DNA from: a virus
Virus record (IMG/VR): IMGVR_UViG_3300042197_004918
Coordinates: 109,818 to 173,817 of that record
Strand: one strand, 5' to 3'
Length of the DNA: 64,000 bases
Below are positions 24,967 through 45,063 of this stretch, in pieces. Made by a program: the position numbers and the translations under genes. The notes below the pieces were generated by a model, which did no database searches, had not been told where the DNA came from, and was given only the letters and a program-made list of their open reading frames with translations. Within the stretch, counting starts at the first letter, position 1. Each line of letters starts with the position of its first letter.

Positions 24967-25224
24967 ATGAAAACAAAACTGTAGAATTGTAAAGAAGTCG
25001 TGTTTCACTTCAACAAGGGTCACCTGGCCAATCCAGAGATTCCTATGTGGGTGTTAAAAACAAAAGGCGAAAGCTACTATGTGAATCACGTCACCGCGAG
25101 TTGTTCTTGGACAACCAAGGAAACTCCCGACAATCCTACAACCAAAGGTTCTTTGAAGTTTAAGAACGTGGATGTGGAAATCAGTGAAGATAGAGAAGCG
25201 ACAATTTTTGCGTCTGTAGTTTAA
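24967..25224 (+). CDS. hypothetical phage protein
   Basis: FHFNKGHL..PMWV.K.KG..YYVNHV..TKETPDN..TKGS; 3' end overlaps the suppressor tRNA. Confidence 0.65.
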
Positions 25225-25284
25225 TGGTCAGAACTGGCGCCTCTAAAACGCCGTGTGTGGGTTCGACTCCCATTGGACGCACCA
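25210..25284 (+). tRNA. amber suppressor tRNA (CTA)
   Basis: GGCGC-CTCTAAA-ACGCC puts CUA at 34-36; canonical D and T arms; A73, CCA. Confidence 0.78.
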
Positions 25285-25526
25285 TGTTTGAAAAAATTAA
25301 CGAACTGTTTAGTGCTTTGGAGAAAGAGTTCCCATATTCAACTATGGGAGTAGATTTTAAGGGACGCCATGCCATAACGAGGGAGAGAGATGGAGTATTA
25401 GTTGTCTCTGTTTGGTCCAAGGGTTCAGTCTATCCAATAGGCGTTGACCCTAAAGATTTTGAAGATATTAACAAGTTTGTGGCCGATTCGAGAGTGATAG
25501 TGGATGGATGGAAGAAATCTGGTTGA
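25284..25526 (+). CDS. hypothetical protein; ATG shares the A of the tRNA CCA
   Basis: MFEKINELFS... Confidence 0.6.
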   Translation: MFEKINELFSALEKEFPYSTMGVDFKGRHAITRERDGVLVVSVWSKGSVYPIGVDPKDFEDINKFVADSRVIVDGWKKSG

Positions 25527-25576
25527 CGGAATCGGAAAGTCTGATATAGTTATTTCAAGGTTAGTTGAGTGAACAC

Positions 25577-26538
25577 GAAAGACCTTAGATTAAAAACTCA
25601 ACTGTATGATTGATACACAAATTAATCCGTTTACTGGTGACGATAGTGCGGTAAGACCGATGTGGGGTTGATTTAATCCACGTAGTTTTGAGGTGACTTA
25701 TCATCCTCACGTTTTGTTGATTGTTCTTTGTAAGTAGAATTTGGGAGGCCTGACTCCCTTCAAGATAAACCGTCGTAAGACGGCTAAAGCAGAAACCCCC
25801 TAACGGGACTGCGCCACAGTAATGTGGACACTCAGGCAACTGACGAATCAGTGTCTTTCACTCAAAAGGTGGAAGTATGTCTGAAGCTGGATTGGTAAAT
25901 GGTGATTGAGGGTAACACTGTAAATCATCTACTAACGGTACCGCCGAGCACTACTAATTCCTAACGGAACAGCCAAGAATAAGATTCAAGTCAAACGTAT
26001 AGATACAAGTCCGCAAGCAAGTGTTTATATGTAGAATGATAGAGAGTGGCCCAGGGTAACCGAGGACATAATCTTGAAATTCGGTGAAGTATCCGCAAGA
26101 GAAACACAAATGGTGTGTGGTATATTGGTTCCCAAAAGGAATTGATGTCACAAGCAACGCACGTCATTGTTAGGTGCATATTATATCATTGTTAGATAAA
26201 CTATATACAAAAAAGCCAAGTCGTTGCTTGTGTTCGTCGAAAAGAACGTAACTCTGAGGCCGTAAGGTAACTCAGACAACGAAGCGCTCGCAAGGTGTTA
26301 GTTGTTGATCCGAGTTTGGACGTGGTCCGCAAGACCTAATTGCTCGCAAGGCAACCGTTTGAATAGAGGTTGATTAGATGGACATTAAAGATGAAAAGCC
26401 GCATCTCTAAAAAGGCCGTTCTGTCAAATACAGACATAAACCGTAAGGTTGTGGATGTGGATACGTTGGGAAAGCAGCCCGCAAGGTTGTAATAATCCAA
26501 TCAAAGGTTGACACGAAACACTGTAGTCTCAGGTTTCA
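25577..26538 (+). ncRNA. large ornate ncRNA, GOLLD-like
   Basis: ~960 nt without a credible ORF; own promoter (TTGACG-N16-TATAGT at 25523); terminal helix; about 10 GCAA/GTAA-capped hairpins; flanked by tRNAs. Confidence 0.62.
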
Positions 26539-26542
26539 TTTT

Positions 26543-26631
26543 GGATGGGTGGCGGAGCCCGGTTTATCGCGCTAGTCTTGAAAACTAGAGAGGCCTAAAA
26601 ACCTCCGTAGGTTCAAATCCTACCTCATCCG
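26543..26631 (+). tRNA. tRNA-Ser(TGA), no encoded CCA
   Basis: CTAGT-CTTGAAA-ACTAG, long variable arm, G73. Confidence 0.92.
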
Positions 26632-26636
26632 CAGTT

Positions 26637-26728
26637 GGAAGTTAGCCAAATATTGGTTTGTTGGAGCTGTTTGCTAAACAGTGCCGGTGTAAAAGCCGGT
26701 GAGGGTTCGATTCCCTTGACTTCCGCCA
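26637..26728 (+). tRNA. tRNA-Ser(GCT), 7/5 or 8/4 fold
   Basis: GCTGT-TTGCTAA-ACAGT, long variable arm, G73, CCA. Confidence 0.88.
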
Positions 26729-26744
26729 TCCCGCAGTAGGCATT

Positions 26745-26778
26745 CTCCGATGACGTAATTGTTGTCGGAGGATTTTTC
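26745..26778 (+). terminator. terminator closing the RNA island
   Basis: CTCCGATGAC-N-GTTGTCGGAG followed by a T-run. Confidence 0.65.
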
Positions 26779-26824
26779 ATGTCCAAATTGGACGTAATCT
26801 TAGTTGTTGTGATATTTATTCTGT

Positions 26825-27193
26825 ATGGAAACCGACTTAAAGGGAATTGTAAAAGAATTTGGTGTATTTATAGTCAAGAAATTGTCTATCACCAAACCGT
26901 TTAAGATAGAGTTGACGAACAACCGGGAAGGTCTTAAAACCTATGCTTATTACGACCCAAAGACCGGATTGGTTAGGGTGTATAAAGGAAATCGTTCCAA
27001 AGCAGATATTCTCCGTTCCATTGCACACGAGATGGTTCACCACCAACAGAACCAAAATGGTAAGCTCACACAAGACCCCAAAAATCCTATTCCCGACATC
27101 GGCGGCGAAATCGAAGACGAGGCCAATGCAGTTGCTGGTCAGTTAATCAAAGAATTCAGTTACGCTCACGAAGATTTCAAGTTGTATGATTAA
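26825..27193 (+). CDS. zincin-like metallopeptidase domain protein
   Basis: AHEMVH (HExxH) ... EDEANA. Confidence 0.75.
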   Translation: METDLKGIVKEFGVFIVKKLSITKPFKIELTNNREGLKTYAYYDPKTGLVRVYKGNRSKADILRSIAHEMVHHQQNQNGKLTQDPKNPIPDIGGEIEDEANAVAGQLIKEFSYAHEDFKLYD

Positions 27194-28232
27194 GCTGGTA
27201 GAACAACTTCTATCAGAGTCCTTGTTGACCGAGATTAGTGAGAACACCTCTCTCTATCACCGGAGCTATAAGAAAATGGAGCCGGGCGAGATAATCAAAC
27301 CACACATAGCGGATGGAGGACTCTCATATAAATTCTCCGAATTAGCTTTGGAAGAAGAACGAAAACTTACCGCACCTAATGCACCTAGTAGACTCAACTG
27401 TGTTTTCAGTAGTTTAATACCGAGAAGTCGATTTGTTGACAAGGGGTATCTATACCGAATTAAACCGATTGGGAAAATATTCCTAGCAGACAGCACTCTG
27501 ATAGACGTTATCACCGAAAAATTTGAACGTGAGTATTACGACCGCATTGGTAGATATGACCAACAAGAACGTAAGCACTATGAAGAAGATTTCAAGAAAA
27601 AACCATCAATGCTTCTACAGTTCCTTCCATACGATGCGAATTATTATTGGAAGGGTTACGTTCCTGAATTTTCAAAACACGGAAAACAAGCTCTAAGGGA
27701 TATTGAAGTTTTGAGCGACAGTGCCAAGGTTTTAGAAGTTGTCCAAGAATCCGAGAAATCTACACCTTTTGTGGTCGGAGATATTGTGGAAGTTACCGAA
27801 CCAAAAAAGATTCGTGCGTCGTTGACGATTTACTTCAACTCGAAATATGAAAAAAAGGACGAACCGAAGGCCAATCTATCCACCGACGAAATGGCAGATT
27901 TGTTGCATAAAATAAAGAACCAAGTTTTTGACGGGGTTGACCCAGAACCATCGAAGTATTCCGACAGCACCTACGATTTCTTAGGTCATCTTAAAAAAGG
28001 AGCCCGTCTAAGGGTAATCAATTTAGCCAGCAGCATTAGAGGCGGCGACGGACGGTCGCAGATAAATACGGGAAGAAAATATGAGTCTCTAATGTTCGAC
28101 TTCTTTTTGGATGGTAAAGAAATTCATCGGGGTGCTAAGAAGAACGATAAAAACATAACCCACAGATTTCAAATGTATAGACTCAACAATGAATCTGTTC
28201 CCGATGTAAGCAAATATCTAAAGAAGGTCTGA
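27186..28232 (+). CDS. putative virion-packaged ADP-ribosyltransferase-fold protein
   Basis: LYHRS..PSRLNCVFSS..YLYRI..YW.G..IEVL; MIKL..LLSE leader. Confidence 0.5.
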   Translation: MIKLVEQLLSESLLTEISENTSLYHRSYKKMEPGEIIKPHIADGGLSYKFSELALEEERKLTAPNAPSRLNCVFSSLIPRSRFVDKGYLYRIKPIGKIFLADSTLIDVITEKFEREYYDRIGRYDQQERKHYEEDFKKKPSMLLQFLPYDANYYWKGYVPEFSKHGKQALRDIEVLSDSAKVLEVVQESEKSTPFVVGDIVEVTEPKKIRASLTIYFNSKYEKKDEPKANLSTDEMADLLHKIKNQVFDGVDPEPSKYSDSTYDFLGHLKKGARLRVINLASSIRGGDGRSQINTGRKYESLMFDFFLDGKEIHRGAKKNDKNITHRFQMYRLNNESVPDVSKYLKKV

Positions 28233-31484: not shown

Positions 31485-32918
31485 ATGAATGCTAACGAAA
31501 ATATTATCCTTTTAACGGATAGCTACAAAGTCGGACACCACAATATGTATCCGACAGGCACACAGAATGTTTACAGCTACTTTGAGAGCCGTAAAGGTGC
31601 CAAATTCAACGAAACCGTCTTCTTCGGGCTCCAAGCATACTTGAAAAAGTATTTTGCTGGAGTCGTCGTGACTCAGACCGACATTGACAAGGCGGACGAG
31701 TTTTGCAAAGAACACTTCCTTGGAATGAATTTCTTTAATCGTGCCATGTGGCAACGTATTGTTGACGTTCACAATGGAAAACTTCCTCTCCGGATTATGG
31801 CTGTCAAAGAAGGAACTCCCGTTCCGGTCGGCAACGTCTTGATGACGGTTGAGGCCACGGACGAGACGATTAACCCTGAGACTGGTAACGCTTATTTCGC
31901 TCCTCTTACAAATGTGTTTGAAACCATCTTGACTCACGTTTGGCACCCAAGCAATGTCGCCACTATCAGTCGGGACATCAAGAAACACTTGAAGGCTGGT
32001 TTCGATAAAACGGTTCCCGACGAATTGGGTTGGTTACTTGACTATATGCTCCACGATTTCGGTTTCCGTGGAGTAAGCTCGGTTGAATCGGCTGGAATGG
32101 GTGGTGCAGGACATTTGGTTAATTTCAAGGGAACAGATACCCTCGTCGCAATCACTTATGCCCGGCGTTATTACAACACAACTGAAATGGTGGCTCACAG
32201 CGTTGCTGCCACGGAACACAGTGTTATGACCGCAGAAGGGCCTGCTGGCGAGTTTAAGGTGGTTGAGAAGTTGATTAAAGACTATCCCGCCGGCATCCTT
32301 TCGGTTGTCAGCGACAGTTACGACATTGAGAACGCCATCAGACAGTATGGAACTACATACAAAGAGGCTATCCTTGGACGAAATGACGGTGCTAAGTTTG
32401 TTATTCGTCCGGACAGCCCTCGGTTTGAGGACGATACGCCGGCAGCACAAATTCTATGGATTGCTCAGGAGCTTGAGAAGTATTTCGGTGCTACGGTGAA
32501 CGGTAAAGGATACAAGATGCTTCACCCGAAAGTTGGTATCATCTACGGAGATGGACTCAGCCGAGATGAAATCATCGAAGCAATCGACACGCTTATTGTG
32601 AATGGATACGCCGCAAGCACTTGTGTCTTCGGTATGGGTGGTGGATTGTTACAGAAACACAATCGGGACACTCAACGAAACGCTTTCAAGTGTTCGGCTC
32701 AGAAGCGTGGAGACAAGTGGGTTGAAATCTTCAAAGACCCAAAGGACAAGACCAAGGCATCGAAACGTGGTCGTCTCGCACTTGTCTTGGAAAACGGCCA
32801 GTATAAGACCGTGTTGGAGAGTGAAGCGAAAGACAATCTCTTGGAAGTCGTTTTTGAGAACGGTGTTTTGACCCGAGATATGACGTGGAACGAAGTTCGT
32901 AACAACGCAAAAGTATGA
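31485..32918 (+). CDS. nadV: nicotinamide phosphoribosyltransferase
   Basis: TDSYK..H, ESR, LHDFGFRG, A.EHS, SVVSDSYD, IRPDS, IYGDG, FGMGG.LLQ..NRDT, K.SK.G. Confidence 0.96.
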   Translation: MNANENIILLTDSYKVGHHNMYPTGTQNVYSYFESRKGAKFNETVFFGLQAYLKKYFAGVVVTQTDIDKADEFCKEHFLGMNFFNRAMWQRIVDVHNGKLPLRIMAVKEGTPVPVGNVLMTVEATDETINPETGNAYFAPLTNVFETILTHVWHPSNVATISRDIKKHLKAGFDKTVPDELGWLLDYMLHDFGFRGVSSVESAGMGGAGHLVNFKGTDTLVAITYARRYYNTTEMVAHSVAATEHSVMTAEGPAGEFKVVEKLIKDYPAGILSVVSDSYDIENAIRQYGTTYKEAILGRNDGAKFVIRPDSPRFEDDTPAAQILWIAQELEKYFGATVNGKGYKMLHPKVGIIYGDGLSRDEIIEAIDTLIVNGYAASTCVFGMGGGLLQKHNRDTQRNAFKCSAQKRGDKWVEIFKDPKDKTKASKRGRLALVLENGQYKTVLESEAKDNLLEVVFENGVLTRDMTWNEVRNNAKV

Positions 32919-43632: not shown

Positions 43633-45063
43633 ATGTTAATGAAAGATTTATTGTTGGAAGGTATAAAGGAAACCGCTGCGTTGGATTATCTGACGCAGTT
43701 GGTTAAATCTGGCCCATTTAAGGGCAGGGTGTTCCTCGCGGGCGGAGCTGTCCGAGACATGGAACTCGGCAAAGACCCAAAGGATTTAGATGTAGTTGTC
43801 ACCGGAGGAATTGAAGCTGGGATGGAGTTTGCACGATGGGCGACTCGTCAGATGGGGAACTATAAAACGGATTCAAATCCCGTCGTCTTTCCACAATACG
43901 GAACCGCGAAGTTCACTTTACAGGGAATTACCCACAACGGAATTGATTTGAGTGATATAGACATCGAAGCTGTTGCTACCAGAAAAGAAAAATACTCTGA
44001 TGGCAGTCGTAAACCGGAGGTGACTTCTGGCGACTTGGCCGATGACGTAAATCGTAGAGATTTCACGGTCAACAGTCTATTGAAAGACTTGACCACGGGT
44101 GAAATTCTGGATTTGACCGGCAAGGGTAAAGACGACATCCGTAAGGGTATAGTTCAGACTCCCCTTAATCCAGACATAATCTTCACGGAAGACCCGCTTA
44201 GGATTTTGAGGGCCGCTAGATTTGCTATCAAATACGATTGGGATTTGCCATTGTTCATGGTGAGGGCCATGAAACGCAATTCCGCGAAGCTGAAAAACAT
44301 CAGTTTTGAAAGAATCAGAGACGAACTTGATAAGATGTTGCTGACCGGTTCTCCACACCGAGCCATCAAACTTTTGAAAATTACAGGTGTCTTGGAATAC
44401 GTTGTTCCTGAATTTAAGGCAGCCTACAAGATGACCCAAAACATACACCATAAGCACGACGTGTTTGCACATTCTATGGATGTATTAAGTAAAACCAAGC
44501 CTGTTCTTGTTCAACGGTTGATGGGACTTTTCCACGACATCGGTAAAACGGTGACTCGTAGCGTAACTCCTACGGGTGTTCATTTCTATGGCCACGAATA
44601 CGAGGGTGCCAAGATGGTTGCTGAGATAATGAAGAGGATGAAATACCCAAATGAGCTTATTAAGCAAGTTGTCCTTGGAGTCAACAGCCACATGAGGCTC
44701 AAATCTGGTGGACCGGATTCCTTTAAGTTAAGCGATAAGGCTTTGAGAAAGTTCAAGGTTGAGATGGGTGACGAAATAGAGAACATTTTGGATGTTATCC
44801 ACGCCGACAATATCAGTCACAGTGAGGCATCTAGTATGCCGGCTCAAATAGATAATATCAGAGAAAGGTTGTCTAACCTGTCAATCACAGCTGAGAAGCC
44901 AAAACTTCCGATAACCGGTGAGGATTTAAAACTAGCAGGAATTAAGCCAGGACCAATTTACTCTGAAATAATGAGTGCGGTCTTGGAGAAGTGGTATGAG
45001 AATCCGTCTATATCCAAAGAGGAGGCTTTGAACATCGCTAGAGAACTTTCCAAGAAAGTTTAA
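43633..45063 (+). CDS. cca: CCA-adding tRNA nucleotidyltransferase with HD domain
   Basis: GGAVRD, DLD, RRDFTVN, EDPLRILR, ERI.DE, FHDIGK. Confidence 0.92.
   Translation: MLMKDLLLEGIKETAALDYLTQLVKSGPFKGRVFLAGGAVRDMELGKDPKDLDVVVTGGIEAGMEFARWATRQMGNYKTDSNPVVFPQYGTAKFTLQGITHNGIDLSDIDIEAVATRKEKYSDGSRKPEVTSGDLADDVNRRDFTVNSLLKDLTTGEILDLTGKGKDDIRKGIVQTPLNPDIIFTEDPLRILRAARFAIKYDWDLPLFMVRAMKRNSAKLKNISFERIRDELDKMLLTGSPHRAIKLLKITGVLEYVVPEFKAAYKMTQNIHHKHDVFAHSMDVLSKTKPVLVQRLMGLFHDIGKTVTRSVTPTGVHFYGHEYEGAKMVAEIMKRMKYPNELIKQVVLGVNSHMRLKSGGPDSFKLSDKALRKFKVEMGDEIENILDVIHADNISHSEASSMPAQIDNIRERLSNLSITAEKPKLPITGEDLKLAGIKPGPIYSEIMSAVLEKWYENPSISKEEALNIARELSKKV

Follow-up and report, generated by a model that had tools for sequence, protein, structure and literature searches.

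What does a large phage keep at the end of its tRNA genes, in almost a kilobase of DNA that holds no credible open reading frame (ORF)? A preliminary description of this locus had proposed an ornate non-coding RNA of ~960 nt with its own promoter, either a member of the GOLLD family or the first of a new class of large non-coding RNAs. We analysed the whole 64,000-nt stretch of DNA in which it lies (the window), which is the final 64 kb of a 173,817-nt IMG/VR viral record that is 49% complete according to CheckV.

Identity of the RNA and its phage

Scanning the window with all Rfam families returned a single match other than tRNAs, to GOLLD (RF02032), on the + strand at 26108–26535. The match scored 211.4 bits (E = 2e-58), 61 bits above the gathering score of 150 bits, and covered model positions 1–416 of 416; the model spans only the conserved 3′ region of the GOLLD family. 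The ROOL model gave no match, either at its gathering score in the window or at E values up to 5 in 25400–26800. A search with these two models was the check that had been put forward with the preliminary description, and the full-length RF02032 match together with the absence of ROOL therefore decides between its two proposals: membership of GOLLD holds and the new class falls. Judged by this homology, the region is a genuine GOLLD RNA gene and a new example of a known family. The locus is laid out as follows, with all features on the + strand.

25523–25550, predicted sigma-70-type promoter (−35 TTGACG at 25523–25528, 16-nt spacer, TG at 25542–25543, −10 TATAGT at 25545–25550)
25557–25722, leader of ~166 nt
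25723–25730, GTTCTTTG box of 8 nt, 12 nt before the first helix, P1
25736–25841, sub-domain A of the 5′ domain
25842–25883, extra element of ~42 nt
25884–25993, sub-domain B, collinear and weakly conserved
25994–26107, distal 5′ sub-domain (C), diverged
26108–26542, GOLLD 3′ domain
~26170–26225, A/U-rich variable linker within the 3′ domain
26281–26356, hairpins L20, L21a and L21b
26524–26532, terminal loop with the family motif GUA-N-UCUCAG
26543–26632, tRNA-Ser(TGA), called by ARAGORN and Rfam
26637–26728, tRNA-Ser(GCT), called by ARAGORN and Rfam
26742–26778, terminator-like hairpin from a consensus scan (14-pair stem, 4-nt loop, T-run)

The source is an uncultured large myovirus, as the contig carries genes for a tail sheath, a tape measure protein, a family-B DNA polymerase and a ribonucleotide reductase, has an even GC content and showed no host flank among the contig proteins sampled. 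Its DNA polymerase is 79% identical to that of another IMG/VR contig, IMGVR_UViG_3300045538_000426 (hereafter G001), and 44% identical to that of Microcystis phage Mel-JY01. The window encodes two auxiliary metabolic genes typical of large phages, for thymidylate synthase (1104–2276) and nicotinamide phosphoribosyltransferase (31485–32918), as well as a CCA-adding enzyme (43633–45063) whose best match, at 51% identity, is in the 735-kb uncultured phage record LR756501; a GOLLD scan of that record gave no match. The 24 tRNA genes of the window lie at 14.9–26.7 kb, and the GOLLD sits at the end of this island. One of the tRNAs called by ARAGORN (25210–25284), ~240 nt upstream of the GOLLD promoter, has the amber-suppressor anticodon CTA and is labelled Pyl; the long ORFs of the phage are normal in code 11. 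The protein encoded downstream of the locus (27186–28232) had no relatives in the viral contigs searched.

Several features that had been read from the sequence beforehand were borne out. The tRNA-Ser(TGA) gene starts 4 nt past the 3′ end assigned earlier (26538), and the lack of a credible ORF was confirmed in that the longest ORFs in 25527–26542 reach at most 84 aa and no stop-free stretch keeps its place or frame in the relative on G001. The GCAA/GTAA hairpins appear as CGYAAG at every position that had been listed, nine times on the + strand within 25774–26485 (712 nt), against ~0.2 expected from the 46 matches found in the 128,000 strand-bases of the window as a whole. The proposed extent of ~960 nt was right as to a large non-coding RNA but too long: the structured body comprises ~800 nt and starts at ~25736–25743, with 796 nt of structured, family-homologous sequence at 25743–26538. 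By contrast, a supposed pairing of the two ends was not supported. Its best duplex (−13.1 kcal/mol) is no better than the mean for shuffled leaders (−13.2 kcal/mol), and equally good duplexes arose with 480 of 1,000 shuffles and with 137 of 332 natural window segments. The 3′ partner in this duplex is the near-invariant terminal loop of GOLLDs, including the 3-bp stem of that loop.

In a blastn search of 25400–26700 against GenBank phages, only the tRNA-Ser genes found matches, and two exact 22-mers from this GOLLD had none in the viral contigs searched. Scanning the records of polymerase relatives revealed a GOLLD on G001 (locus L220, 216.9 bits); eleven further polymerase relatives, all of them fragments, gave no GOLLD match. 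At 88% identity, homology to G001 covers exactly 25512–26542 and does not extend into either flank. Identity is highest in the 3′ domain and the extra element (95% each), followed by sub-domains C (93%), B (88%) and A (82%). None of 100 predicted pairs in the 5′ domain is broken in G001, where six show double and four single changes; in sub-domain C, too, no pair is broken. Substitutions cluster in the distal leader and the internal linker, without codon phase. Both loci share the promoter hexamers, the box, the 5′ subtype, the 3′ domain and the same two downstream tRNA-Ser genes. They differ in that G001 carries an ORF of ~135 aa with an HNH endonuclease signature between GOLLD and tRNA-Ser (L220:1990–2400), whereas the junction is uninterrupted here.

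A protein-coding or decayed coding region is exceedingly improbable, since the stop-free stretches of up to 90 codons on the − strand that might suggest one are shifted in place and frame in G001, substitutions in the body fall by phase as 23/18/12 without a third-position excess, stem changes are compensatory, and the 5′ half folds better than shuffles on the + strand (z = −2.1) but not on the − strand (z = +0.7).

The 5′ and 3′ domains

Upstream of the Rfam match, the locus has to be compared with GOLLD 5′ regions. Scanning viral contigs for the GOLLD 3′-end signature yielded at least 120 loci. Sorted by their upstream 450 nt, those listed comprise a main group of 76, a second one of 13 and further small ones. 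The main group represents the type of GOLLD env-38, because the env-38 construct (PMC12286853 Supplementary Table 4) starts with the consensus that we derived. Three covariance models, R1, R2 and R3, were built from 41–42 non-redundant main-type sequences (41 for R1). R1 matched sub-domain A over its full length with 26 bits (E = 1e-4), the best match in the 64 kb on both strands, followed by a runner-up of 12.6 bits. R1 also matches GOLLD subtypes outside its training set, at 31–34 bits, suggesting that this GOLLD is about as far from env-38 as accepted variants are.

Sub-domain A opens with the P1 hairpin (25743–25747 with 25754–25758), whose loop (25748–25753) pairs with 25832–25837, and contains three more hairpins. 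Aligning 40 sequences, including this one, on the model, we found 96.8% of pair cells to be standard, compared with 75% for shuffles and 29–44% for slid partners, and double-sided changes at 23 of 31 pairs. The P1 hairpin, which lies outside the model, is 95% paired, and the helix between its loop and the strand ~80 nt downstream is 100% paired. All six nucleotides of the P1 loop are engaged with the downstream strand, leaving no linker nucleotides, and both helices covary. Loop and hairpin pairing within one chain would be sterically tight, which is why either the hairpin or the loop helix could instead join two subunits of the cage. A pattern built from the junctions of sub-domain A hit 75 viral loci, which were discarded as chance matches as they had neither blastn similarity nor an R1 match.

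The extra element occupies the gap between the R1 and R2 matches and has no counterpart in the env-38 type. It is common to a GOLLD subtype represented by two contigs, L002 and L111. A pattern derived from it found only L002, L111 and G001 among viral contigs, and only fragments of the same two contigs among metagenome contigs. By these searches, the element defines a rare 5′ architecture, present on three viral contigs besides this one. A conserved 30-nt piece of it (L002:8645–8674) otherwise occurs only in the GC-richer L002/L111 subtype and in the relative on G001. We considered L002 and L111 as close relatives and rejected this, as they have this one element in common and are otherwise distant.

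Sub-domain B was matched by R2 with 12.8 bits, the best score in the window, at an E value of 0.71 window-wide and 0.0065 within 25527–26120. It keeps an internal-loop motif at ~25908–25922, matched by a profile HMM, and an AAUAAGA junction. On sub-domain C, which measures 114 nt compared with ~169 nt in the env-38 type, R3 gave a non-significant match of 8.8 bits (rank 6) that starts where B ends. As in the rest of the family, a less conserved 5′ domain, of ~400 nt in GOLLDs, lies upstream of the 3′ domain in an RNA totalling ~800 nt.

Within the 3′ domain, the A/U-rich linker aligns to the unstructured positions 63–135 of the Rfam model and is the part of the body that has diverged most from G001 (9 substitutions in 50 nt); no tRNA was found inside it. 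In the L21a loop, the GC dinucleotide that makes the symmetric kissing contact is retained. L21b takes a form that is in the minority among GOLLDs, and the terminal loop is kept. Both loop forms, of L21a and of L21b, occur among 69 other viral GOLLDs compared.

GOLLD env-38 forms a closed 14-mer cage with D7 symmetry, as determined by cryo-EM (Kretsch et al. 2025, PMC12286853), in which the terminal loop makes tertiary contacts with seven regions (PMC12286853). The RNA described here resembles env-38 in its full-length 3′ domain, A/U-rich linker, L21a GC dinucleotide and terminal loop motif, and in a 5′ domain that opens with the same P1 hairpin, loop-to-strand helix and three hairpins. The two are also of similar size (~800 nt here, 830 nt for env-38), and both are phage-borne and near tRNA genes, with tRNA-Ser genes downstream in this case, whereas env-38 itself lies downstream of a tRNA-Met. 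Unlike env-38, this RNA has the extra element of ~42 nt after sub-domain A, a sub-domain B that is only weakly alike, the shortened distal sub-domain and the minority L21b loop, and it is preceded by a conserved promoter and a 166-nt leader. ROOL, which forms octameric cages and is found in phages and prophages near tRNA islands, is likewise a large ornate RNA that builds a cage from RNA only beside tRNA genes, but its sequence and fold are unrelated to those of this RNA.

These differences from env-38 bear on whether the locus could after all encode a large structured RNA of a new class with no more than a resemblance to GOLLD. Such a class might be suspected from the failure of the env-38-type model to recover the distal 5′ domain, from the additional 42-nt element and from the lack of a close relative among GenBank phages. 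However, the family model is matched end to end, 61 bits over its curated cut-off, and sub-domain A is common to GOLLDs and covaries. A divergent 5′ region is, moreover, a stated feature of GOLLD RNAs, as are a disordered internal linker and an occurrence in phages near tRNA islands (PMC12286853). We therefore give the new class hardly any credence and treat the RNA as a GOLLD.

Promoter, leader and the upstream box

The promoter that had been proposed for this RNA corresponds to the sigma-70-like site at 25523–25550, which is kept in G001. In the promoter consensus scan, it had 10 of 12 matches plus the TG, with a predicted start near 25557. In G001, the spacer sequence is scrambled, yet both hexamers and the 27 nt past the −10 element are retained, as a functional promoter would leave them; by this footprint, we regard the promoter as real.

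The leader that follows lies outside the family-homologous GOLLD body. It is unique in the genome, matches no Rfam family and contains no conserved ORF; a 21-aa candidate at 25606 was dismissed, as no ribosome-binding site was seen by eye and G001 has GTG in place of its ATG, followed by an immediate stop. Folding 25557–25744 gave a structure no better than shuffles (z = −0.03). One stem (25562–25570 with 25596–25604) is kept in G001, to which the leader is 66% identical. Two hairpins, at 25662–25681 and 25690–25708, are each followed by a U-rich run, with T-runs extending to 25719, and the distal half of the G001 leader has different hairpins that also come with U-runs. The two hairpins with their U-runs could stop transcription before the GOLLD.

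Between leader and body lies the GTTCTTTG box, which is kept in G001 and stands in register with P1 here and in many other loci. Among the viral loci listed, 55 of 71 non-identical ones carry it on the GOLLD strand 800–920 nt before the 3′ motif; the distance here is 810 nt. Counting box copies among the at least 120 loci listed, we found at least 136 forward and at least 37 reverse, at least 81 of the forward copies being at the GOLLD 5′ flank. Ten copies among the loci listed precede a tRNA by 7–22 nt. Where GTTCTTTG(A) precedes a tRNA, an ATATTGG-like element often follows. The env-38 cryo-EM construct is devoid of the box, from which it follows that the cage does not need it. Together with a downstream A/T box, it does not fit sigma-70 spacing, there is no −35 element at the right distance, and a tRNA ends within 40 nt upstream of only 1 of 52 boxes among the loci listed. 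Its position suggests that the box may be a start signal or a processing or cleavage site. Searching the literature for the box or for a promoter of GOLLD genes brought up only unrelated papers and no description.

Two other roles of the box were considered and rejected. A general promoter of this phage was discarded on finding 7 copies against 3.7 expected, with the others inside ORFs. A link to ROOL was likewise dropped, the full motif being present in only one lineage of four near-identical sequences in the ROOL alignment (PMC12286853).

A start signal at the box would raise the question of whether the locus comprises two transcription units, the promoter making a leader RNA of ~110–160 nt that ends at 25662–25689 or 25690–25719 and the GOLLD starting separately near the box. 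The two hairpin and U-run sites between promoter and GOLLD, whose substitutes in G001 also carry U-runs, would provide the ends of such a leader RNA. The box, in register with P1, is present in 55 of the 71 loci listed whatever lies upstream, and with just 1 of 52 boxes closely following a tRNA, most would have room for start signals of their own. Against this, box and A/T box are off sigma-70 spacing, the −35 element at the right distance is missing, and the hairpins fail simple terminator criteria, one being bulged and one having a 9-nt loop in G001. In addition, the homology block shared with G001 begins at the upstream promoter and not at the box, indicating that promoter, leader and GOLLD travel together. 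Thus, two separate units are a serious but somewhat improbable alternative to a single unit that is read from the upstream promoter.

At the other end of this single unit, the two tRNA-Ser genes are probably co-transcribed with the GOLLD. The last base conserved with G001, 26542, directly precedes tRNA-Ser(TGA), which starts at 26543, and we infer that the GOLLD 3′ end would be freed by RNase P. A tRNA, mostly tRNA-Met, starts on the same strand 11–40 nt past the 3′ motif in 25 of 117 viral GOLLD loci listed. RNase P cannot be a general route to the 3′ end, because the tRNA-Ser genes of G001 do not abut its GOLLD.

Proposed expression, assembly and significance

We propose the following course of events. 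Host RNA polymerase would start at the sigma-70 promoter near 25557, read through the leader of ~166 nt and on across the GOLLD body and both tRNA-Ser genes, and stop at the terminator near 26775. An RNase P cut at the 5′ end of tRNA-Ser would free the GOLLD 3′ end at 26542, and the 5′ end would be defined at the GTTCTTTG box or close to it. For the RNA of ~800 nt, homology predicts a 5′ cap domain and a 3′ ring domain, and copies of the folded RNA would assemble into a protein-free cage through the same loop–loop and A-minor contacts as in env-38. The loops that make these contacts in env-38, L21a, L21b and the terminal loop, are kept here; cage formation is predicted by homology, and stable expression from the promoter footprint. 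In env-38, the cap is formed by the distal 5′ domain. As this part has diverged in the present phage and sub-domain B is only marginally matched, we take neither the cage nor its 14 subunits for granted. Overall, we consider it very probable that the locus is a GOLLD RNA gene at the end of the 24-gene tRNA island of a large myovirus.

What such a cage might do can be guessed from context. Given that GOLLDs are constantly found near phage tRNA genes and that a CCA-adding enzyme is encoded here, the cage might take part in the phage takeover of translation, holding or organizing tRNAs or parts of the ribosome; this is our best guess, although we rate it as rather improbable. More speculative still, and in our view unlikely, is a joint reading of the locus. 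In it, the box would mark where the RNAs of phage RNA genes, comprising GOLLDs, some tRNAs and other small RNAs, are started or cleaved, the promoter and the two-hairpin leader would control how much transcription reaches the operon of GOLLD and tRNA-Ser, and the diverged cap would give a cage with different contacts and perhaps a different number of subunits.

A GOLLD beside phage tRNAs is in itself expected. What this locus offers is a footprinted transcription unit of promoter, leader, box, GOLLD, two tRNA-Ser genes and terminator, as predicted from the comparison with G001 and from consensus scans. Its 5′ subtype has its first helices in common with the solved structure and departs from it where the cap is formed. 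If confirmed, the family-wide 5′ box would give a handle on how the GOLLD 5′ end is made.
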